Source: Candidatus Aldehydirespiratoraceae bacterium (lineage in GTDB: Bacteria > Actinomycetota > Acidimicrobiia > Acidimicrobiales > Aldehydirespiratoraceae). Taken from it: a stretch of 64,000 nucleotides of DNA. This document shows positions 1,627 to 45,603 of the stretch, in pieces. The notes below the pieces were generated by a model. The model was not told where the DNA came from and did not search any database. It saw only the letters and a list, made by a program, of their open reading frames with translations. Position 1 is the first letter of the stretch. Every line of letters starts with the position of its first letter. The position numbers and the translations under genes were made by a program. Location: positions 509,586-573,585 of the forward strand of contig OZ240616.1 of assembly GCA_965198315.1 (NCBI GenBank), given 5' to 3'.

Positions 1627-3654
1627 TCAGAAGTCCAGGTTCCGCACTTCGCGTGCGTTGGTGACTATGAAGTTCTTGCGTTGTTCGACATCGTCGCCCA
1701 TCAGTATCGACATCACGTCGTCGGCGATGGCGTCTTGTTCGACCGATACCTGCAGCAGCGACCTGGAGGAAACGTTCATCGTGGTGTTGCGAAGTTCGTC
1801 CCAGTCCATCTCGCCGAGGCCTTTCAGTCGCTGGAAGTCCTTGGTGTAGTTCGGACGGCCGGCTAGGAATTCGTCTTTGGCGGCGTCGTCTTTGAGGTAG
1901 ACGGTTTCTTTGTTGGAGACTTTTGTCGAGTACAGCGGCGGTTGGGCGATGTAGACGTATCCGGCTTCCACGAGTGGCCGCATCTGGCGGAAGAAGAAGG
2001 TGAGCAGCAGGGTGCGGATGTGGCTGCCGTCGACATCGGCGTCGGCTAGCAGAATGATCTTGTGGTAGCGGGCTTGTTCGAGGTCGAACTCATCGGCGAA
2101 TCCTGCCCCGATCGCGGTGATGAGGGTTTTGACTTCGGCGTTTCTCAGCATCTTGTCGATTCGTGCCCGTTCGACGTTGAGGATTTTTCCGCGTATCGGC
2201 AGGATCGCTTGGGTTCGGGGATCTCGGGCTCGCACCGCTGAACCGCCTGCGGAGTCGCCCTCGACGATGAACAGTTCACGCTCGGCTGGGTCTTTCGATG
2301 AACAGTCTTTGAGTTTGTCGGGCATACCCGCACCGTCGAGCAATGATTTGGAGCGGATGGCTTTGCGGGCGTCGGCTGCTGCCACCCGGGCGCGAGCGGC
2401 GTTGGTTGCTTTGGTGATGGTGGCTTTGGCTTCGCCGGGGTGTTCTTCGAGCCAGTCGGCCATGCGTTCGTTGGTCACTCGTTCAACCAGCGAGCGCATT
2501 GAGACATTGCCGAGTTTCGATTTGGTTTGGCCTTCGAATTGGGGTTCGCCGATTCGGGCGGAGATGATCGCGGTGAGGCCTTCTCGAATGTCCTCTCCGG
2601 TGAGGTTGCCGTCTTTTTCTTTGAGCAGCCCTTTGCTCCGCGCATAGCTGTTGACGGAGCGGGTGACCGCGGAGCGGAAGCCTTGTTCGTGCATGCCGCC
2701 TTCGATGGTGGCGATGCCGTTGGCGAAACTGTGTATGCCGTCGGCGTTGAAGCCGGTGTTCCATTGGAAGGCGATTTCGACTTCGTGAGGGTTCTCGTCG
2801 ATCTCTTCGGAGCCGATGAAATATCCGACTGTTTCGAAGAGCGCTTCTTTTGAGGCGTTGATATGGCTGACGAAGTCGATGATCCCGCCGTCGTATTGGA
2901 ACGAGACCCAGTCGTTTGACACCGCGTTCGCTCGTTGGTCCCGCACCCGGATCTCCAGCCCGCGGTTGAGGAATGCCATCATCTGAAAGCGCTCCAGCAG
3001 GGTCTGGAACCGGAATTCGACTTCGTCGAAGATCTCCGGGTCGGGCCAGAATCGCACGGTGGTTCCGGTTCGGGGTCCGGTTTCGCCATTGGCTAGTTCG
3101 CCGATGACTGACGGACCCACCGGCTTCAGCCGTTGAATCAGCTCGCCGCCGTTGCCGAACAGCATGGCGTAGCGTTCGCCGTCACGATCGATCTCGACTT
3201 CGACTCGTTTTGACAGGGCGTTGACTACCGAGACCCCTACCCCGTGCAGTCCTCCAGATACTTTGTAGCCCTTGCCGCCGAACTTGGCGCCCGCATGAAG
3301 GACGGTGAGCACAACTTCAGCGGCTGTCAGGTCTTCGTAGTTGGGATGATTCTCGACTGGGATGCCGCGGCCGTCGTCTGACACTTCGCAGGCGCCGTCG
3401 GCACTCAGGGTGACGTTGACGCGCGTGCAGTGGCCGGCCATTGCTTCATCGACAGAGTTGTCGACGACTTCCCACACCAGGTGGTGCAGGCCGGTGGGTC
3501 CGGTGGAACCGATGTACATACCGGGCCGGGTGCGCACAGCTTCGAGCCCCTCGAGGATCGTTATGTCCTGAGCCTCGTAGGACGATTCGTCAGCGCTGAT
3601 CGTGTCTATTGTCATCTCGTTCTGTCCGTTCGAGACGCTGATTTCCAGGCCCAT
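1627..3654 (-). CDS. gyrB: DNA gyrase subunit B
   Basis: 675-aa ORF with GHKL ATPase and TOPRIM signatures ([72 protein letters not shown]). The true start may be the internal Met at MTIDT. Confidence 0.97.
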
Positions 3655-3672
3655 AACACTGTACTGAGTCTA

Positions 3673-3999
3673 TCAGTCGGGGGGCATTGATCCTTGCGGT
3701 CCAACCCTTACTTTGACGGCTTGAATCCGGTCCGATCCTGAGACTTCTTCGATCTTGGCTATGAGTTCTGTTTCGAGCCATTGAAGCTGGCTGGCCCAGG
3801 TCGGGTCGTCTGCGATTATCAGCAGCGTCTGACCGTCGATGACGCTGGGTCGGGCGTGGGCTGCTACATCTTCACCGACGATTTGGGGCCATTGCAGAAA
3901 CACTGCTCTGAGCACGTCTGTGCTGGGCGCTTTCATTGTGTTCAGTAGGCGCTCGACAGACCATCCAAGTTTTTTGGGCTCGTCGTCACCGCTGCTCAT
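3673..3999 (-). CDS. dciA: DUF721/DciA-like small protein (helicase-loading factor candidate)
   Basis: 108-aa ORF between recF and gyrB with a 4-nt overlap with the recF stop. This is the size and position of the actinobacterial DUF721 protein (mycobacterial Rv0004 position). Assignment rests on synteny and size only. Confidence 0.65.
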   Translation of the reverse strand: MSSGDDEPKKLGWSVERLLNTMKAPSTDVLRAVFLQWPQIVGEDVAAHARPSVIDGQTLLIIADDPTWASQLQWLETELIAKIEEVSGSDRIQAVKVRVGPQGSMPPD

Positions 4000-5105: not shown

Positions 5106-6203
5106 CTAGCTGACGCGCACCGGCATCAGCAGATACAGAAAGTTGGGATCTTCGGAGGATTTGAGCAGAGCCGGTTTCAACTCGCCGAGGGTCTCCAGCA
5201 TGACCTCCGATCCTGGTGTTACTTCGATCCCGTCGATCAAATACTCGGGATTGAACGCAACCATCAGGTCTTCGCCTTGGTATTCGGCTTCGAGGACCTC
5301 GTGGGCTTCGCCCACTTCTTGGGTGACGGCTGCTACCTCGAGTCCTTCTGCGGACATCGACATGCGGATCGGAGTTGATTCCTGGGCTAGTAGACGAACG
5401 CGGCGCAGTGCATCCAACAGTCTTTCGCGATCAATGGTGAGGCGGTTGTCGTGGGCGTCGGGAATCAACCGGTTGTAGTTCGGGAAGTCGCCTTCGATCA
5501 GGCGGGTGGTGATGGTCACTGATCCGACTGAGAAGCTGGCGTTGTGTTCGCCTAGTGACAGCGTGATCTCCTCTTCCTCCCCGACGATTCGGGCGAGTTC
5601 TTTCAAAGCGCGGCTCGGCACCAGCACTTTTTGACCCTCACCCAGCACCGACAGGCCTGCTATGTCGCAAACTGCCAGGCGGTAGGAGTCGGTTGACACG
5701 AGCCGCAGCCCACCGGACTCCGCGGCCATCAGCACGCCGGTGAGGATGGGCCTGGCGTCGTCAGACGAGGCTGCTTTTTCTACTTGTTCGACGGCTGCTT
5801 TGAAGACGGTCGCGTCGAGGGTGACTACATCACCAGCGGGTTCGGGGATCTCGGGGAAGTCGTCTGTGGTGATCACCCGGATTGAGAATTCGGAGGGGCT
5901 GGCGACGATGCGTGCGTCCTGGGCTTCGATCCTCACGTCGACTGCGCCTGGTCGAAGTGAGCGAACTACATCGGCCATTAGTTTCGAGCGCATGACCGTT
6001 ACGCCGTCGCCGCCACCGTTGACAGTTACGGTCACTGAAATCGTCAGGTCGCCGTCGCTGCCCGTGGCGGTGAGTTGGTCGCCGGCAAGTTCAAGGCGTA
6101 CTCCGCCGATGACTGCTGTTCCCCCGCGGGTGGCTACACCTCGGCCGGCTACACCGAGGGCTTCTGCGAGTACGTCTCTTTCGCATCTGAACTGCATGCT
6201 CAT
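5106..6203 (-). CDS. dnaN: DNA polymerase III beta sliding clamp
   Basis: 365-aa ORF directly downstream of dnaA, with the length of a three-domain clamp and a typical C-terminus ...FLYLLMPVRVS. Confidence 0.93.
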   Translation of the reverse strand: MSMQFRCERDVLAEALGVAGRGVATRGGTAVIGGVRLELAGDQLTATGSDGDLTISVTVTVNGGGDGVTVMRSKLMADVVRSLRPGAVDVRIEAQDARIVASPSEFSIRVITTDDFPEIPEPAGDVVTLDATVFKAAVEQVEKAASSDDARPILTGVLMAAESGGLRLVSTDSYRLAVCDIAGLSVLGEGQKVLVPSRALKELARIVGEEEEITLSLGEHNASFSVGSVTITTRLIEGDFPNYNRLIPDAHDNRLTIDRERLLDALRRVRLLAQESTPIRMSMSAEGLEVAAVTQEVGEAHEVLEAEYQGEDLMVAFNPEYLIDGIEVTPGSEVMLETLGELKPALLKSSEDPNFLYLLMPVRVS

Positions 6204-6261
6204 TGTGCGATTACTTCTCCTGAGTCTTGTATGAACAGTTCTAGTAGGAGTTCATAGGGGT

Positions 6262-6277
6262 TGTGGATTGTGGATGA
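6262..6277. promoter_or_regulatory. two overlapping DnaA-box-like 9-mers (TGTGGATTG / TGTGGATGA) in the dnaA-dnaN spacer
   Basis: Sequence ttgtggattgtggatga. Each 9-mer is the reverse complement of a xxATCCACA DnaA-box variant. Confidence 0.5.
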
Positions 6278-6493
6278 ATGTCAGTTTGCCGTGTATTTCT
6301 GCAGTTCTTGCGTCCCCATGGTTTGCCTGTTGGTTCACAGCTTGGTTTGAGCTGAGGCGTTGGCTGTGGGTATTGCAAGAGTTGTGCACTTTGGCGCACT
6401 GGCGTTGCACAAGTGATCTACAGCTTTGTTCACTGCCTGCGTGCTGCGTGGCATAGGCGCCGAGTGCTCGGCCTCCCCCGTGTTGGCGTGGAA

Positions 6494-36642: not shown

Positions 36643-36781
36643 TGGTTGATCTTGGCCGCTTAGGTGCCTCCACGACAAGACGCACCAGCACCCGGCGTTG
36701 GCCCGAGTGTTGGTCCCGTGTGTTGGTCCAGCTTGGCTCGCAATGTGGATCGGTAATTTGATCGTAGATTGAGACTGCGTT

Positions 36782-36836
36782 TGAGACTGAGACTGAGATT
36801 GAGATTGAGATTGAGATTGAGATTGAGATTGAGATT
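36782..36836. repeat. hexanucleotide microsatellite (TGAGAC)2(TGAGAT)7
   Basis: Read directly. It ends 10 nt before the GTG start of the crotonase gene, and the last unit runs into the GGAGAG Shine-Dalgarno. Confidence 0.95.
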
Positions 36837-36845
36837 GGAGAGATC

Positions 36846-37517
36846 GTGTCGATACCGAGTTTGAGCCGAGACGGTGAGTTGCTGATCATTGACTTCGGCG
36901 ACGATGACAACCGCACCAATGTTGCTTGGGTTGAAACCATGAACGTGCTGCTCGACGAGGCTGAGGCGGAGGCCCTCAGCGGCCCGGCCGTGTTGATCAC
37001 GACGGGTTCGGCGAAGCACTATTCCAACGGACTCGACGTGCATCACATAGCCACGCTTTCACGCCCGGAGATCAAGGCTTATGTGAACACGGTGGAGAAG
37101 GTGCTCGGTCGTATTCTGACTTTTCCGGCTCCGACAGTTGCTGCTGTCAACGGTCACGCTTTCGGCGCAGGTGCTTTCGCGATCCTGGCACACGACCATG
37201 CGGTGATGCGCGCTGATCGGGGGTTTGTCTGTTGGCCCGAGGTGCACCTGCAAATGACTTTCAGTCCTGGCCTTATGGCGATGATCCGAAACCTTCTGAC
37301 TAACTCCACCGCCCGAGAGGCCTTGGCGACTGGTCGTCGGTACAGCGGGCCTGATGCGGTTGCTGCGGGGTTTGTGAATGAGGCGGTGAGCCTTGATCAG
37401 CTCATGGCAGCGGCTTCAGAGTATGGCGGTGCTCACAGCGCGACCGCGGGTGCCAACCTCCAGAAGATCAAGCAGCAGCTACACCGGTCGGTGGTCGACC
37501 GTCTCGGCACCGGTTGA
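36846..37517 (+). CDS. enoyl-CoA hydratase/isomerase (crotonase) family protein
   Basis: 223 aa with oxyanion-hole region AAVNGHAFGAGAFAILAHD. Confidence 0.85.
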   Translation: MSIPSLSRDGELLIIDFGDDDNRTNVAWVETMNVLLDEAEAEALSGPAVLITTGSAKHYSNGLDVHHIATLSRPEIKAYVNTVEKVLGRILTFPAPTVAAVNGHAFGAGAFAILAHDHAVMRADRGFVCWPEVHLQMTFSPGLMAMIRNLLTNSTAREALATGRRYSGPDAVAAGFVNEAVSLDQLMAAASEYGGAHSATAGANLQKIKQQLHRSVVDRLGTG

Positions 37518-37606: not shown

Positions 37607-37765
37607 CCAGTCCCCTGTTCAGCCGGTTTGGTTCTTGGGTAGCGGCGGTCGTGGTTCGGCCGGTCGGCTTGGGTCGGTTTTGGGGGTTTGTCGGCTCGGG
37701 TTCGGTTCAGCCAGTCCCCTGTTCAGCCGGTTTGGTTCTTGGGTAGTGGCGGTCGTGGTTCGGCC
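37607..37765. repeat. 55-bp direct repeat (37607-37661 and 37711-37765, 1 mismatch) in a convergent intergenic region
   Basis: ccagtcccctgttcagccggtttggttcttgggtagYggcggtcgtggttcggcc occurs twice. The shorter CTGTTCAGCC-like motif recurs nearby. Confidence 0.9.
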
Positions 37766-37799
37766 CAGCCGGTTCAGCCGGTCCCTGTTCAGCCCTGGT

Positions 37800-40309: not shown

Positions 40310-40657
40310 TCAGTTTTGGGACCAGATTTCATTCCTTGATACGAAGCGGGATGCCTCCCTCAGTTTGCGTTGGATGCTCTTGGGCTTGTCGCCACGCACG
40401 ATCGCATGAGCTGGGTTGTCCTCCTCGGGCTGGCTGACAACCTGTTGGTTGAGACTGCGTGCTGCCCCGGTGGGAAGCTCTGCGATACCAGCGCCCTCTT
40501 TGAGCGTTCTTGGCATCTCAACTTGGATGCTTGCGACATCTACAGACATCTCACGGCCGGTGAATGCGGCAGAGGAGACGCGCCCGTTTGTGATATGTGT
40601 CGGGTGGACGCGTCGCCACAAGAGTTCGTCGTCACCTAGACATTCGGCAGCGGTCAA
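40310..40657 (-). CDS. hypothetical protein (third gene of three-gene operon)
   Basis: 115 aa. The TTG start overlaps the upstream stop (TTGA). Sequence LLWRRVHPTHITNGRVSSAAFTGREMSVD...NPAHAIV has no motif I can assign. Confidence 0.45.
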   Translation of the reverse strand: MTAAECLGDDELLWRRVHPTHITNGRVSSAAFTGREMSVDVASIQVEMPRTLKEGAGIAELPTGAARSLNQQVVSQPEEDNPAHAIVRGDKPKSIQRKLREASRFVSRNEIWSQN

Positions 40658-41190
40658 GTGGTTTCTCGGCCTATTTCAGTGATGAGTTCTCGGAGTGTGG
40701 CCCATACCTCGCTCTGAGAGCCGACTGAATGCTCGGTCTCGGTGTTGTTCGGACCAACGATCAGTACTGACGCCGAACCCTCGGGTGGAATATCCACCTC
40801 GATCTCATAGTCGTTGCCTGTCCACTCGAGTTGGAGCCCTCCCTCGAATGTGGGCACGACCCAGGGAGCAGGCCCCTCGGTTCCGATGGCCTCAAGAACG
40901 TTCAGGGCTCGCTTCACGGCGTTTTCGTGCACGGCCTTTTCGCCGTAACCATTCCAGTTCTCACCAAGCTTCAGCAGTGTTTGAAACCGAGTGAATGTCT
41001 CACCGAACCATGGGCGCGCACGGAGTTCGCTCAAGACGGTGAGGCGGAGCACGGGCCGCGCGGAATCAAAAGGTGGTGGAGGACGAGAACCCGGAGTAAT
41101 CGTCTCGGACATCCCGGTCGTATCGCATGTTCTGTGATGAGATACCTGAGACAACTCGCTGGTCAACAAGGGCTGATTGGTAACCGTCAT
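40654..41190 (-). CDS. hypothetical protein with NWNGYG motif (second gene of three-gene operon)
   Basis: About 178 aa from ATG 41190 (ATGA overlap with the upstream stop). LKLGENWNGYGEKAV...PTFEGGLQLEW. Confidence 0.5.
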   Translation of the reverse strand: MTVTNQPLLTSELSQVSHHRTCDTTGMSETITPGSRPPPPFDSARPVLRLTVLSELRARPWFGETFTRFQTLLKLGENWNGYGEKAVHENAVKRALNVLEAIGTEGPAPWVVPTFEGGLQLEWTGNDYEIEVDIPPEGSASVLIVGPNNTETEHSVGSQSEVWATLRELITEIGRETT

Positions 41191-42002
41191 AAAGTTCGGC
41201 CCCATTTCGCGTGTGCGTCTGATGTCGTTGCGGATGTGAATCCTCGGACAATCCACTCGTGTGCCAAGTCCATGAAATCTAGTGCACCGTCGATGTCGGG
41301 TGATGATGCTCTCCCCCGAGAGGTGAGACGCAACACAAACAGTCTTTCACCACCGTCGCGGTCCGCTGTCCACCCTTCGATGTTGAGCCAGCCTCGTTTG
41401 TCGGGAAGGTGGAAGTGCAACAACATACGGCCATGAGGGTCTGTCGGCAGGAAGTCGTCACTCATAGTTCCGTTCCACGGCGCGATGAACTGCTTTGTAT
41501 CTTCGGCTGAATGCCACCCTTGGTCTGATCCGAGATGGTTGATGTACTGAGCTTCACAGATCGAGGGTTGCGGCATATCGAGATCAAGGTCATTGATACT
41601 CGCCCTCAACTTGCCCCAGGAATCAAGCAGAGCATCGCGGATGCTCCGATAGCGCTGGTAGGTGTCGTCGTCAGTCCCCTGTTTCCAGTTGACGACTATT
41701 CGATCCTGCTGTAATTGCACTACGCGGTCACCGGTTGCGTTTTGGAGCCATAGCCGCGGTGTCTCGATTTCGTCGCTTTCGTCCAACGTCAGATCGGGCC
41801 TGTCCGAGCCGAATCCCATTGTCGGAAGCGGCGTCCTCTCCTCTACGTTTGGGTAATCGTCCTCCCATCGGCGTGCGATTTCGGCTAAGTGATGTGCCTT
41901 GTAGCCGATAACCCTGTCAAGTTGGACCGCCAAGGCGACCTCAACCACAGGCGGGCGTTCGTATTCAGGAAGGCCCTGATCGTGTGTGGTCACCGACCGC
42001 AT
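41187..42002 (-). CDS. TIGR04255-like uncharacterised protein (first gene of three-gene operon)
   Basis: About 271 aa from ATG 42002 (the ORF track uses TTG 42050). The N-terminus EYERPPVVEVALAVQLD and the later AQYINHL resemble the TIGR04255 family pattern as I recall it. Confidence 0.55.
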   Translation of the reverse strand: MRSVTTHDQGLPEYERPPVVEVALAVQLDRVIGYKAHHLAEIARRWEDDYPNVEERTPLPTMGFGSDRPDLTLDESDEIETPRLWLQNATGDRVVQLQQDRIVVNWKQGTDDDTYQRYRSIRDALLDSWGKLRASINDLDLDMPQPSICEAQYINHLGSDQGWHSAEDTKQFIAPWNGTMSDDFLPTDPHGRMLLHFHLPDKRGWLNIEGWTADRDGGERLFVLRLTSRGRASSPDIDGALDFMDLAHEWIVRGFTSATTSDAHAKWGRTL

Positions 42003-42135
42003 CCTATTGCCAAGCCGCCCGATTGTTGGACATACGCCTGCGGAAGACAAAGGTAACTACCTGTCGAGTGTCCACTCGCTGGGTCCGGATCGCTCCATGG
42101 GCTCAGCTCGTCGGGGACCGGCCTTGGCGTGGGCT

Positions 42136-43299
42136 TTAGGGGCCGTTTGGTGGGTTGTTGGGGTTGATGATTTTGTAGCCGGTGTTGGTTTTGATGACTA
42201 CATAGCCGCGGTCGTGGATGTTGTGGTGGCACAGCGGGCAGGCCAGACACATTTTGTCGATGTCGGTGAGCCCGCCGTGTTGCCATGGGACGATGTGGTG
42301 GATTTCGCAGCGTTCGGGTCCGGCGGTGCTGTCTTTGCCTGTGCAGTGCCGGTCACGGGCGATGATGGCTTTGATTTGAGCCTCGGTGGCGTGTCGATGA
42401 TCGCGTCCCACCCAGATGGGTTGTCCTTCACCGTCAAACACGACTCCGGTGATAGCAGCGGTGCACATGAGCCGTTCCAACACGGTTTGCGGGAGTGCTT
42501 CACCCCCGACGATCTCAGCGACCCCGGTCGGGTTATCGCCGCGTAGGCGTTCAATGTCGGCTATGGCGATGAGTTGTGTGCGTGTGCTGCCGGGTCCGCG
42601 TCGTGCCGGGTTGGTCAACAACGCCACGAACGCGTCCGCCATACGCTGCGGCAGTGTGCGCACATCATCAGGGGAACCGTCGCGGCCGCCGTCGTCACGC
42701 CACAACCGGTCATATTCGACGTTGATTGCTTTGACCACCTGTTGATAGCTGGTCGGATCCAACTCAGCCAACAGCACACCCATGCCTTGTTCGTTGATCC
42801 AGTGTTTCAACAACCGGTTGCGGCGCTGTTGTTGATACAACTCGGCGCCGTCGTCGGGTTGGTTGCGGTTCACCCACCGCCGCGACTGTTCAGCAAACAC
42901 ATCAACAGACGAAGTCTCAGCAAGCTTCGACAACTCATCGTCAACTTGCCCAGCAGATGTCTTCCCAGCAGCTCCGACCGCGACCGCGGCGTGCTCTGCT
43001 GTGATCGCGCCTCCAGCCAACGCTTCAGCCAGTCTGGGCATCTCCGCGAGTCCAGCAGCAGTCTTAGCGACTGTGTTCGCGGCGCGAGTCGACATGCGCC
43101 CCGCCTCACGCAACACCGTCTTGGAGTTCACCCCGCCGTCATCGAGAGCTTCGATCTCAGTCGCGCACCGCGTCTGCAACGAACTCAACGCCGCTACAAC
43201 CCGCCCAGCACCCGCCACCAGACACTCCAACTCGCCACGGCAAAGCCCAGAAGTCACCACCTCCCGGGTCTGTTGGATCATCGAATCGAACATGACCAC
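42136..43299 (-). CDS. DUF222-type HNH endonuclease (mycobacterial 13E12-repeat-like protein)
   Basis: 387 aa with a long helical N-domain and then an HNH motif, CEIHHIVPWQHGGLTDIDKMCLACPLCHHNIH. The probable start is ATG 43293. Confidence 0.8.
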   Translation of the reverse strand: MVMFDSMIQQTREVVTSGLCRGELECLVAGAGRVVAALSSLQTRCATEIEALDDGGVNSKTVLREAGRMSTRAANTVAKTAAGLAEMPRLAEALAGGAITAEHAAVAVGAAGKTSAGQVDDELSKLAETSSVDVFAEQSRRWVNRNQPDDGAELYQQQRRNRLLKHWINEQGMGVLLAELDPTSYQQVVKAINVEYDRLWRDDGGRDGSPDDVRTLPQRMADAFVALLTNPARRGPGSTRTQLIAIADIERLRGDNPTGVAEIVGGEALPQTVLERLMCTAAITGVVFDGEGQPIWVGRDHRHATEAQIKAIIARDRHCTGKDSTAGPERCEIHHIVPWQHGGLTDIDKMCLACPLCHHNIHDRGYVVIKTNTGYKIINPNNPPNGP

Positions 43300-43824: not shown

Positions 43825-44538
43825 CTAAAACAGCGGTGGCTCTGGGCCGTGGTCGCAATTTACCGGGCTACAAATGCCGCAACGGTCAAGCTCCCACGTG
43901 TGTTTCTTGAGGCAAGCCGCCAAAGGGGGACTAGTCGAGAACTCTGGGTGGAAGTGGCGGCCAATCACAACTGGCAGAAGAACATTCGCTTCGATTTCCG
44001 TGAGTGCGGCGTGAGCAGCGGTGATGTTTCTACCTCTAGTGAACGTATCGTCCAAGAGCAGAACACGCTTCGCCTTCAAGTCGGTGGGCGCCCTGTAAGT
44101 CGGTGAGCCACCTGTGTCGGTATACGTAAGCGCTACGTGGAGCTCACGAAGGTCGGGGAGCTTCTTCACAATGCCCCAAACCGCATCCCGCCTACTTGAC
44201 GGGACCGTAACAACTGCGTCGTACCGACCACCAATGCACTTGTGGTGGTTGTGCAAGAAGAGATGAAGCAACGCCGCGAGTTGTAGTGTGAAGACCTTCT
44301 TCTGCTCCGTGTTCCCGTCTTTGTAATTGCGAAGACGGTGGTGGAGAGCTTTACCGTCAATCGACATCGATATTGGAAGCACCTCCACGATGCCCTCGTC
44401 CTCACATCGGTAGCAGCGTTCATACCCAGGATTAGCACCGCTGCGACACGTACTGCACACGAGGGGTTGGGCTGCGGCAATTGGCACCAATCCCGACTCC
44501 AAGCGTTCGAGGTAGCGCTTAGGATTCAGATTGGTCAT
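43825..44538 (-). CDS. ComF-type phosphoribosyltransferase-domain protein (ShosT-like candidate)
   Basis: 237 aa from ATG 44538 (ATGA overlap with the DprA-like stop). N-terminal Cys pairs CSTCRSG..CYRCE and PRPP loop VLLLDDTFTRGRN. Confidence 0.75.
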   Translation of the reverse strand: MTNLNPKRYLERLESGLVPIAAAQPLVCSTCRSGANPGYERCYRCEDEGIVEVLPISMSIDGKALHHRLRNYKDGNTEQKKVFTLQLAALLHLFLHNHHKCIGGRYDAVVTVPSSRRDAVWGIVKKLPDLRELHVALTYTDTGGSPTYRAPTDLKAKRVLLLDDTFTRGRNITAAHAALTEIEANVLLPVVIGRHFHPEFSTSPPLAACLKKHTWELDRCGICSPVNCDHGPEPPLF

Positions 44539-45464
44539 ACGAAGACGGCGCTGTCGTCGACGGCCAGATCGGCTTCTAGCTCCTTCACAATTTGGTCGGC
44601 GTCGTCGACCACCGTGGTGTTGAGCGATTCCGACTGCATCTGCTGGGCCCACGACTGAGATGTGACAAGGGAATTAACTAGAAAGACTTGCTTGCCGTGC
44701 CTGAGCGCGGCCTGAGCCTGGAGCCGGGCTCCCGAACTCTCCGACGCTTCCACCACGACAGTGGCGAGTGCCAATCCCGAACCGGTGAGGTTGCGTGCCG
44801 GGAACGACCAACGCCCTGTACGCACACTGGGAAGGAACTGCGACACGCAAGCGCCCTGGGCGGTGATCTGTCGAGCCAGAGAGCGGTTCGCGGCGGGATA
44901 GATTTTGTCGATCGGCGTACCAAACACAGCAATAGTTCGTCCGCCCGCATTGAGTGATGCCGCGTGGGCAGCAGTGTCTATTCCCTTAGCCAAACCGGAA
45001 ACAACCGTATAGCCGCGCGCAACCAGCCCTTCTGCAACGTTCTGAGCCAGATCGAGTCCGGCCTTGGATGCCTCACGGGTTCCGACGACCGCCACCGCTC
45101 GGTGATCTTCAGCCTCCAGGCGTCCTTGAACGAACAACAGCGGTGGCCCGTCATGAACCAGCTTGAGATTGATCGGATAGCGGCTGTCTGTACTGGTGAT
45201 CAATTCCACGCCCGCGTCGCGGAGCCGGGACAATTCGTCTTCCCACCAGTCTCTGTTAGATTCGCCGTGACACAGAGCGTCTTCCAACCAGCGCCGGTCA
45301 GCTGCGTCGAGTTGGTCGCCGTCAGAATCAAAGGCAAGTTCGTCGAGCAAAAAAGTCAATCGACGCATAGCTGATCCGTTCATAAACGGAACCAAGTGTT
45401 CGCACGCTGCCAACAGAAGCGGTGGGTCCTTAACGAGATCCGACAAAATCACAGGCACGATCAT
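44535..45464 (-). CDS. DprA/Smf-like DNA-processing Rossmann protein (ShosA-like candidate)
   Basis: 309 aa from ATG 45464. DprA core AVVGTREASKAGLDLA, VVSGLAKGIDTAAHAASL, TIAVFGTPIDKIYPAANRSL, FPARNLTGSGLA, VVEASESSGA. The 430-aa ORF-track version runs into the sulfatase gene. Confidence 0.85.
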   Translation of the reverse strand: MIVPVILSDLVKDPPLLLAACEHLVPFMNGSAMRRLTFLLDELAFDSDGDQLDAADRRWLEDALCHGESNRDWWEDELSRLRDAGVELITSTDSRYPINLKLVHDGPPLLFVQGRLEAEDHRAVAVVGTREASKAGLDLAQNVAEGLVARGYTVVSGLAKGIDTAAHAASLNAGGRTIAVFGTPIDKIYPAANRSLARQITAQGACVSQFLPSVRTGRWSFPARNLTGSGLALATVVVEASESSGARLQAQAALRHGKQVFLVNSLVTSQSWAQQMQSESLNTTVVDDADQIVKELEADLAVDDSAVFV

Positions 45465-45603
45465 CAGGTCCTTTTTGTGGGCGGCGCAGGTCGCTGAGAC
45501 ACACAGCGTTGCTCGAAACAACTGTATACACGGGCTATGACACTGACAGCGATATCTGTGGTCCTTCGTCGTGGTGATCGTCTTGGTTTGGTGCCCGTTG
45601 CCG

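Follow-up and report, generated by a model that had tools for sequence, protein, structure and literature searches.

The 64,000-nucleotide stretch of contig OZ240616.1 analysed here (the window), from a Candidatus Aldehydirespiratoraceae bacterium, bears three adjacent minus-strand genes, named g1, g2 and g3 in the order in which they are read, which form one translationally coupled operon and are co-inherited as a unit across at least five bacterial phyla. It is highly probable that this trio is a conflict module. The more specific reading that we favour, for which the chances seem to us about even, is that of a translationally coupled and horizontally mobile module, most likely of the anti-phage toxin-antitoxin or abortive-infection type and built as a sensor, an adaptor and an effector. 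By sequence comparison the trio is a distant three-gene relative of PDC-M32, a predicted candidate cassette of the PADLOC collection (families PDC-M32A and PDC-M32B), and its three-gene form, in which g1 is a protein of the TIGR04255 family, is not modelled in PADLOC.

A sequence-only reading of this DNA had described three minus-strand open reading frames (ORFs) chained by 4-nt overlaps. The ORFs and both overlaps were found again (Table 1), and all the peptide motifs quoted from them were present in the translations. At the g1/g2 junction the plus-strand tcat at 41187-41190 corresponds to ATGA on the coding strand, where the ATG of g2 overlaps the stop codon of g1 (ACTTTATGACGG), and at the g2/g3 junction the plus-strand tcaa at 40654-40657 corresponds to TTGA, with the TTG of g3 over the stop codon of g2 (ACCACTTGACCG). 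Related loci were collected and the three genes were placed in each one of them by hidden Markov models. With the genes located in this way, g1 was detected in 13 non-redundant loci, 12 of which had the -4 ATG start of g2 (ATGA overlap), and the -4 NTGA overlap between g2 and g3 was kept in 17 loci. The remaining g2/g3 junctions with a candidate start had it at about 14 nt or less from the g2 stop codon, and two loci (L017 and L031) had none there. Because the start/stop overlaps are conserved in relatives, the operon can be considered real. The start of g3 had a constant position across relatives, the codon being TTG, ATG or GTG, which supports the TTG start of g3 in the window.

Pairwise ratios of non-synonymous to synonymous substitution rates (dN/dS) for g1, g2 and g3 were 0.27, 0.36 and 0.51 against a relative of 90% identity (L001), and 0.13, 0.31 and 0.20 against one at about 60% (L011); the proline-rich, poorly conserved N-terminus of g2 gave 0.29. 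All three genes are under purifying selection. Simple scans around the operon detected no promoter, terminator, Rfam family or tRNA, no significant hairpin was present in the region 3' of g3, and no second copy of the trio was found within the window. The lower GC content of the trio, pointed out in the sequence-only reading, is real (0.567, against a window mean of 0.5985), but it is a marginal dip, at the 10th percentile of windows of the same size, and a weak argument. The GC content at third codon positions (GC3) was 0.62 in the trio, against 0.67-0.79 in housekeeping neighbours.

When one genome per GTDB species was scanned with a g3 profile, 35 loci were obtained from Acidimicrobiia, Rubrobacter, Acidobacteriota, Myxococcales, Alphaproteobacteria and Cyanobacteria, the closest relative of the window trio being that of an Acidimicrobiales metagenome-assembled genome (L001, 90% identity), which places the window in this order. 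An ORF with the g2 domain was located directly upstream of g3 in loci L001-L044, with the exception of L021/L022 (a second, g2-less copy in one genome). OZ224042 (Acidimicrobiales) had a full trio (L019, g3 at 6001-6315) and, about 16 kb apart, a g3-like ORF without g1 or g2 (L022, 6001-6306), which was the only g2-less g3 seen.

The same linkage was found starting from g1. All seven homologues chosen by similarity to g1 alone (about 30-36% identity; six metagenomic genes and one gene of a Mycobacterium paragordonae plasmid) had a g2 homologue directly downstream and then a small third ORF. The match of this ORF to g3 was clear in five of these loci and weak in the plasmid, and there was none in L051. 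A metagenome scan with g1 returned 260 relatives, and 86 g1-bearing loci (L051-L136) were examined, namely the best 80 of the 260 and six that were fetched separately. At g1 identities down to 29%, g2 was present in 63 of the 70 metagenome g1 loci with at least 350 nt of downstream sequence, and g3 in 56 of the 61 with at least 850 nt. Co-conservation had been proposed as a check of the sequence-only reading, and by these counts the trio is kept together across phyla. Decayed copies of the module were also observed, with g3 truncated to 84 aa in L017, g1 present as two ORFs in L031 and g3 as two ORFs in L033.

The part of the module upstream of the g2 domain was found to vary. In the first architecture a TIGR04255 gene is followed by a short g2 and by g3 (Acidimicrobiia, Reyranella, Rhizobium, another alphaproteobacterium, Chamaesiphon and the Mycobacterium plasmid); in the second, a long g2 (369-380 aa, up to 462) is followed by g3; and in the third, found in Nostocales (L036-L044), an unrelated gene of about 230 aa precedes g2 and g3. 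The C-terminal domain of g2 and g3 are the conserved core, found with at least three unrelated front ends. The possibility that the N-domain of the long g2, of about 250 aa, was a diverged TIGR04255 protein was tried and rejected (hhalign probability 0.3). The Nostocales protein of about 230 aa (e.g. L036, 4630-5337) bears the motifs RDFS, NPSILNPDFLKYN and ANFHR, replaces TIGR04255 upstream of g2 and g3, and had no family match; profile comparison gave no support for a TIGR04255-like or PDC-M32A-like nature, and the protein possibly represents a front end of a third kind.

From its match to the NCBIfam model ('sporadTIGR04255'), g1 is a true member of the TIGR04255 family, to which the sequence-only reading had assigned it: the score was 67 bits against a cut-off of 30, and residues 14-268 aligned to positions 2-252 of the 252 of the model, that is, over its full length. 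A literature search on TIGR04255 found no function, structure or paper for the family, and g1 had no match in Pfam, PADLOC or PDB sequence searches. The AlphaFold2 (AF2) model of g1, obtained from 66 homologues, had a mean predicted local distance difference test score (pLDDT) of 91.6 and was made of two consecutive beta-alpha-beta4-alpha units. Top Foldseek matches in PDB were TBP (E 1.5e-3, probability 0.95) and the di-domain START-like protein DynU16 (E 1.5e-3), with template modelling (TM) scores of 0.25-0.38. Further weak matches (E of at least 1.5e-3) were the ARO/CYC protein StfQ, PYR/PYL receptors, and guanidino-kinase and McsB catalytic domains, and the last two had the highest TM (0.30-0.38, probability up to 0.97). 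These matches suggest a TBP-like or helix-grip fold class, of the scaffolds that bind a ligand or nucleic acid. Seven polar residues were invariant in g1 (E21, R83, Q96, Q98, N105, Y153 and N155) and five residues were nearly so (D100, R101, E150, R229 and H264); the strands of the predicted fold carry conserved polar residues.

Two observations were made on other g1 homologues. A TIGR04255 paralogue with 51% identity to g1 (P0213) was found outside the window, and a second copy of the system may exist in another part of the genome. Three metagenomic homologues of 378-452 aa (P0248, P0268 and P0270) were considered as g1-g2 fusions and rejected as such; they are g1 copies in which a long tandem repeat of peptide units such as PEIPAADPRFLPPTRDSCRR interrupts the protein past residue 200 or so, and they appear to have been inactivated by DNA tandem-repeat expansion.

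The product of g2 (178 aa, pI 4.76) begins with about 45 proline-rich residues conserved within Acidimicrobiia only. The conserved region, residues 51-175 approximately, contains the motifs W-[DN]-G-Y and G-G-x-Q-x-E-W and is strongly acidic throughout the family (median pI 4.8). The invariant positions of its alignment (W, Y, P, P, G, E, W and E) include few polar residues, which, together with the acidity, suggests a binding rather than a catalytic role. Sequence and profile searches found no relative of this domain in Pfam or PDB, and Pfam scans of g2 and 34 homologues detected no helix-turn-helix (HTH), ribbon-helix-helix (RHH) or AbrB domain.

A word-index search with g3 gave 35 relatives, and a profile search of 1.84 billion cluster representatives (clusters at 50% identity) gave 2,873 clusters with E<=1e-3 and 946 with E<=1e-10, so the description of g3 as an orphan in the sequence-only reading did not hold. 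The best 150 of these clusters consisted entirely of stand-alone proteins, about 90-170 aa long. H84 was invariant in 147 diverse members, at least 90% of which kept L13, R15, S29, A31, F32, S38, V39 and G89; the motifs of the family are E-x-L-h-R-R-v-H-P, S-S-A-A-F, E-M-S-V-D and N-P-A-H-A. The AF2 model (pLDDT 89.8) is that of a small alpha/beta protein. Ten of its 26 top Foldseek matches in PDB, all non-significant, belonged to the ADP-ribosyltransferase (ART) superfamily (AvrPphF/HopF, KptA/Tpt1, RES toxin and DarT; query-normalised TM 0.35-0.50), and viral RNA 2'-phosphotransferases recurred among the weak matches in BFVD. In the predicted strand order the first strand carries R15, the second S38, and the fifth has H84 at its beginning; these would correspond to the positions of the ART triad, and H84 would occupy the site where the catalytic Glu would be expected. 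From the model, an ART-like activity of g3 is a possibility to be held tentatively, somewhat short of probable. The candidate chemistries (use of NAD+, ADP-ribosylation or Tpt1-like phosphotransfer) were proposed because of the weak fold resemblance alone.

None of the three proteins gave anything in Pfam, PHROGs or PDB sequence searches, nor did PDB profile searches with alignments of g1, g2, g3 and the long g2. When 147 g3 and 34 g2 members were scanned singly against Pfam only noise was obtained, with a lone HEPN_RES_NTD1 match (E 0.005) and a lone EAD7 match (E 0.012). No match to a housekeeping enzyme or to an enzyme family was found for any of them, in agreement with the sequence-only reading, which had been unable to tie them to a known enzyme. 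For the three proteins there is no Pfam model, solved relative or paper, though the g3 family comprises about 2,900 clusters of stand-alone proteins of 110-160 aa.

The PDC entries are predicted phage defence candidates chosen for their embedding in BREX, DISARM or type I restriction-modification loci, and among them PDC-M32 is a two-family candidate cassette with 98 RefSeq occurrences; candidates found by embedding are often standalone and sometimes lie in islands or in other systems (Payne et al., bioRxiv 10.1101/2024.01.29.577857). A literature search found no paper testing PDC-M32, and the only one mentioning it lists PADLOC matches in Sinorhizobium prophages. The C-domain of g2 resembles the C-terminal third of PDC-M32A (residues 66-173 on model positions 259-370 of 375; E 9e-12, 42.7 bits), and the N-terminal motif of g3 resembles PDC-M32B (residues 9-36 only, on model positions 3-30 of 123; E 1.5e-8, 33 bits). 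The order A then B on the same strand and with tight coupling is common to g2 and g3, with their 4-nt overlap, and the relatives with a long g2 (369-380 aa) share the two-gene layout. The window system differs in having three genes, with an extra coupled gene upstream: the N-terminal part of PDC-M32A, of about 250 aa, is missing from g2, and in its place there is a separate TIGR04255 gene with no PADLOC match. PDC-M32A is not matched by g2 over its full length, and both matches of the window proteins (43 and 33 bits) are partial and weak.

The two-gene relatives with a long g2 also matched the PDC-M32 models weakly (49 bits), with g3 aligned there over positions 3-93 of PDC-M32B; their N-domain was only partly alignable to PDC-M32A and had no profile similarity to TIGR04255. 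Because even these relatives match the PADLOC models weakly, the window system and PDC-M32 are probably branches of one larger superfamily, of modular build, in which the two-gene PDC-M32 of PADLOC would be one branch. Current defence finders would miss the three-gene form, g1 having no match and g2 and g3 partial ones. The window trio is not embedded in a BREX, DISARM or type I restriction-modification locus, whereas the homologous trio of L048 is in BREX. The sequence-only reading had proposed a novel conflict module; as a candidate role, conflict is backed by the co-conservation of the trio, by a neighbouring Shosta system and by the BREX locus, but the word novel has to be qualified by the distant kinship with PDC-M32.

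In the mechanism that we propose, g3 would be the effector, a small enzyme-like alpha/beta protein, possibly of the ART superfamily and, if so, one using NAD+ or modifying nucleic acid. The acidic C-domain of g2 would bind g3, hold it inactive and link it to the front end. The exchangeable sensor would be g1, which would bind g2, perhaps via the lineage-specific N-terminal tail of g2, and would trigger the release of g3 upon binding a phage-derived ligand or macromolecule. The role of effector was given to g3 because of its conserved H/R/S/S set, its near-universal presence (it was found in every locus collected via g3 and in most of those collected via g1) and its downstream 'toxin' position. 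The g2 domain may be a neutralising adaptor because it is nearly always adjacent and coupled to g3, is acidic and seems non-catalytic. Since this domain is fused to another one in the long form, front end and adaptor may act as one unit (Rosetta-stone logic), which in turn suggests that g1 is a sensor binding g2.

Several known systems share parts of this design. A small toxin with a possible ART-superfamily fold beside a dedicated neutralising partner, as proposed for g3 and g2, is the arrangement of DarTG, Xre-RES/MbcTA and ParST, and DarT, RES and KptA/Tpt1 were among the nearest, if weak, structural neighbours of g3. DarTG is a known anti-phage system. The three systems have, however, no sequence or profile relationship to the trio: compared with ART-fold toxins, g3 is smaller (115 aa) and has R/S/S/H instead of H-Y-E, R-S-E or R-E-S, while g2 is not a macrodomain, Xre HTH or DUF2384 protein, and the trio has a third gene. 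CapRel-type fused toxin-antitoxins and the tripartite toxin-antitoxin-chaperone systems may obey the same logic, in which the effector and its neutraliser form a conserved core and recognition is left to a module that can be exchanged, joined to the core by fusion (long g2) or encoded by a separate coupled gene (g1), but their domains are wholly different from those of the trio and the likeness is architectural only. In type II toxin-antitoxin pairs the partner is upstream, the small enzyme-like protein is downstream and the genes overlap. g2 and g3 share with them the adjacent, coupled small genes and the upstream partner, but no DNA-binding domain, common though not universal in antitoxins, was found in g2.

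On one side of the window trio there were genes for a glyoxalase, an MDMPI protein, an acyl-CoA dehydrogenase and an enoyl-CoA hydratase, and on the other a DUF222-HNH gene and then the ShosA and ShosT genes (Table 1). The sequence-only reading had recognised these last neighbours as an HNH nuclease and a DprA/PRTase pair; by their PADLOC matches, the pair is a complete Shosta defence system (43825-45476), about 1.8 kb from the trio. Shosta is a two-gene defence system of toxin-antitoxin type, its genes joined by an ATGA overlap as g1 and g2 are, and it is in the same island, but its PRTase and DprA-like proteins are unrelated to those of the trio. The closest relative, L001, had the trio and the HNH gene without Shosta, suggesting that Shosta is independent cargo in the same hotspot. 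Shosta and the trio co-occur again in L009, where the trio, a closely related Shosta pair and a type I methylase fragment were in one neighbourhood, at an insertion point different from that of the window. DUF222-HNH genes were found upstream of the trio in four diverged Acidimicrobiales genomes, in the L001 group (L001, 5371-6528), L011 (2-1081), L013 (1884-4148) and L014 (two copies, 766-2535 and 2635-3810), and not in other lineages; such a gene may travel with the trio as a selfish element, or it may mark a hotspot of insertion.

Table 1. Positions of the trio and of neighbouring genes in the window
Feature	Positions	Strand	Remarks
g1	41187-42002	minus	271 aa from ATG 42002; alternative TTG 42050 gives 287 aa (41187-42050)
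g2	40654-41190	minus	178 aa from ATG 41190; maximal ORF 40654-41256, 200 aa
g2 conserved C-terminal domain	40666-41040	minus	residues ~51-175
g3	40310-40657	minus	115 aa, TTG start
DUF222 + HNH endonuclease gene	42136-43299	minus	Pfam DUF222 E 3.9e-16, HNH E 3.2e-7; directly upstream of g1
ShosT (PRTase)	43825-44538	minus	PADLOC E 1.4e-5; ATGA overlap with ShosA from ORF coordinates
ShosA (DprA-like)	about 44535-45476	minus	PADLOC E 6e-66; Pfam DNA_processg_A E 4.8e-60

The surroundings of the other copies varied between genomes, so that the stable core-metabolic synteny named as a check with the sequence-only reading was not what we found. The trio of L048 was between pglX and pglZ of a BREX system, those of L046 and L052 were among HepT/MNT, SymE and UPF0175/DUF433 toxin-antitoxin genes, and that of L049 had a Schlafen/AlbA_2 gene on one side and a type III restriction-modification system on the other. 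L051 was beside an integrase, transposase fragments, a SocA gene and an ABC ATPase, the trio of the Mycobacterium plasmid (L045) came after a MobF relaxase gene, integrases were near four further loci, and L053-L055 were among housekeeping genes. The system is best described as a small mobile module that is often alone and only sometimes in an island or within another system.

Some of the results weigh against an anti-phage sensor-adaptor-effector module. Housekeeping genes predominated among the 150 ORFs within 3 kb of the trio in 27 loci; beside them four transposases, two HNH genes and a few defence genes were counted, so that the loci taken together show a modest enrichment in defence islands. 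Neither tblastn against phage genomes nor a scan of viral contigs found a homologue, and tblastn against 72,556 plasmids found one only (Mycobacterium). On the side of the proteins, the structural matches of g1 have low TM (0.25-0.38), the internal repeat of its model was sought and is not detectable at the sequence level, and g1 is rich in invariant polar residues and could itself be an enzyme. The model of g3 had no significant Foldseek match (best PDB E 0.25), its R15/S29/S38/H84 set is not a canonical H-Y-E, R-S-E or R-E-S triad and has no conserved Glu at the third position, and its pI is near neutral (about 6.8), unlike that of many strongly basic toxins.

The trio could be a classical addiction module, either a toxin-antitoxin pair or a tripartite toxin-antitoxin-accessory set, that stabilises mobile elements or islands and has no dedicated anti-phage role. 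We consider this rather unlikely, though several observations speak for it: gene order and overlaps are typical of type II toxin-antitoxins, one copy is on a conjugative-type plasmid beside the MobF relaxase gene, and others are in toxin-antitoxin-rich islands or beside integrases, or alone among housekeeping genes, as many are. Broken copies (frameshifted or truncated g3 in L033 and L017, split g1 in L031 and g1 homologues with a repeat insertion) are also in keeping with addiction. However, there was a single match in 72,556 plasmids, no HTH or RHH domain, such as autoregulating antitoxins usually have, was found in g2, and defence is indicated by the copy lodged within BREX and by neighbouring Shosta or restriction-modification genes. 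Many toxin-antitoxin systems are moreover also anti-phage, so that this alternative overlaps with the anti-phage reading.

Exchanging the roles, so that g1 would be the enzyme or effector and g3 a small regulator, a nucleic-acid binder or an antitoxin, seems to us decidedly improbable. It would account for the fact that g1 has more invariant polar residues than the other two proteins and that its highest-TM Foldseek matches are guanidino-kinase domains and McsB. Nevertheless, g1 is dispensable for the core, given that the g2 domain and g3 persist with unrelated front ends, and the effector is not normally the exchangeable part; g3, in turn, retains one His without exception, and one Arg and two Ser nearly so, in a family of about 2,900 clusters.

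Very unlikely, in our opinion, is a guard or accessory of DNA-targeting defences, comparable to PrrC of type I restriction-modification loci, that would remain silent as long as the BREX, restriction-modification or Shosta system next to it is not inhibited by a phage. The location of the L048 trio between pglX and pglZ would fit such a role, as would the definition of PDC candidates by embedding of this kind, the restriction-modification genes adjoining the trio in L009 and L049, and the weak TBP-like fold of g1, which could bind DNA or a DNA mimic. Most copies, however, have no recognisable restriction-modification or BREX genes beside them, which makes it unlikely that the trio generally depends on one host system.

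An ordinary housekeeping, regulatory or metabolic operon without any role in conflict, to which the many housekeeping neighbours and the recurrence of the Acidimicrobiales trio near the same MDMPI, acyl-CoA dehydrogenase and enoyl-CoA hydratase genes might point, is hardly credible in view of the patchy spread over phyla at 29-50% identity in mutually unrelated neighbourhoods, the different exact insertion points within Acidimicrobiales (window and L009), the lack of any enzyme-family match, a GC3 below that of the flanking genes and the occurrence of pseudogenised copies.

A bolder version of the sensor-adaptor-effector reading, speculative and on balance improbable, would see in the g2 C-domain together with g3 an effector cassette of wide occurrence that can be plugged into at least three unrelated sensors. 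The g3 protein would then be a new minimal ART clade (about 110 aa) with R-S-H residues instead of R-S-E or H-Y-E which, once released, would use NAD+ or modify nucleic-acid ends, and TIGR04255 would be a TBP-like saddle sensing phage DNA, a DNA-mimic anti-restriction protein or a nucleotide signal. If true, it would give a first function to TIGR04255 and to the g3 family. If g3 is the effector, it could be among the smallest known ART-like toxins and have unusual catalytic residues, and exchangeable front ends would provide a natural experiment in which one effector is wired to different phage sensors. The present data link the uncharacterised TIGR04255 family to a defence-type cassette and add, for this branch, a predicted fold and a near-obligatory linkage to g2 and g3. 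As one of many candidate systems the trio is of moderate immediate surprise, and its interest would be high if g3 were a new minimal ART-like effector and TIGR04255 a phage sensor.

Two repeats were observed in the metabolic flank of the trio. A hexanucleotide microsatellite, (AGATTG) x12, occupies positions 36766-36837 of the window, directly upstream of the enoyl-CoA hydratase gene, which starts at 36846, and an imperfect 58-nt tandem repeat (3.2 copies, 61% matches) is located at 37617-37782, within the stretch that separates this gene from the acyl-CoA dehydrogenase gene.

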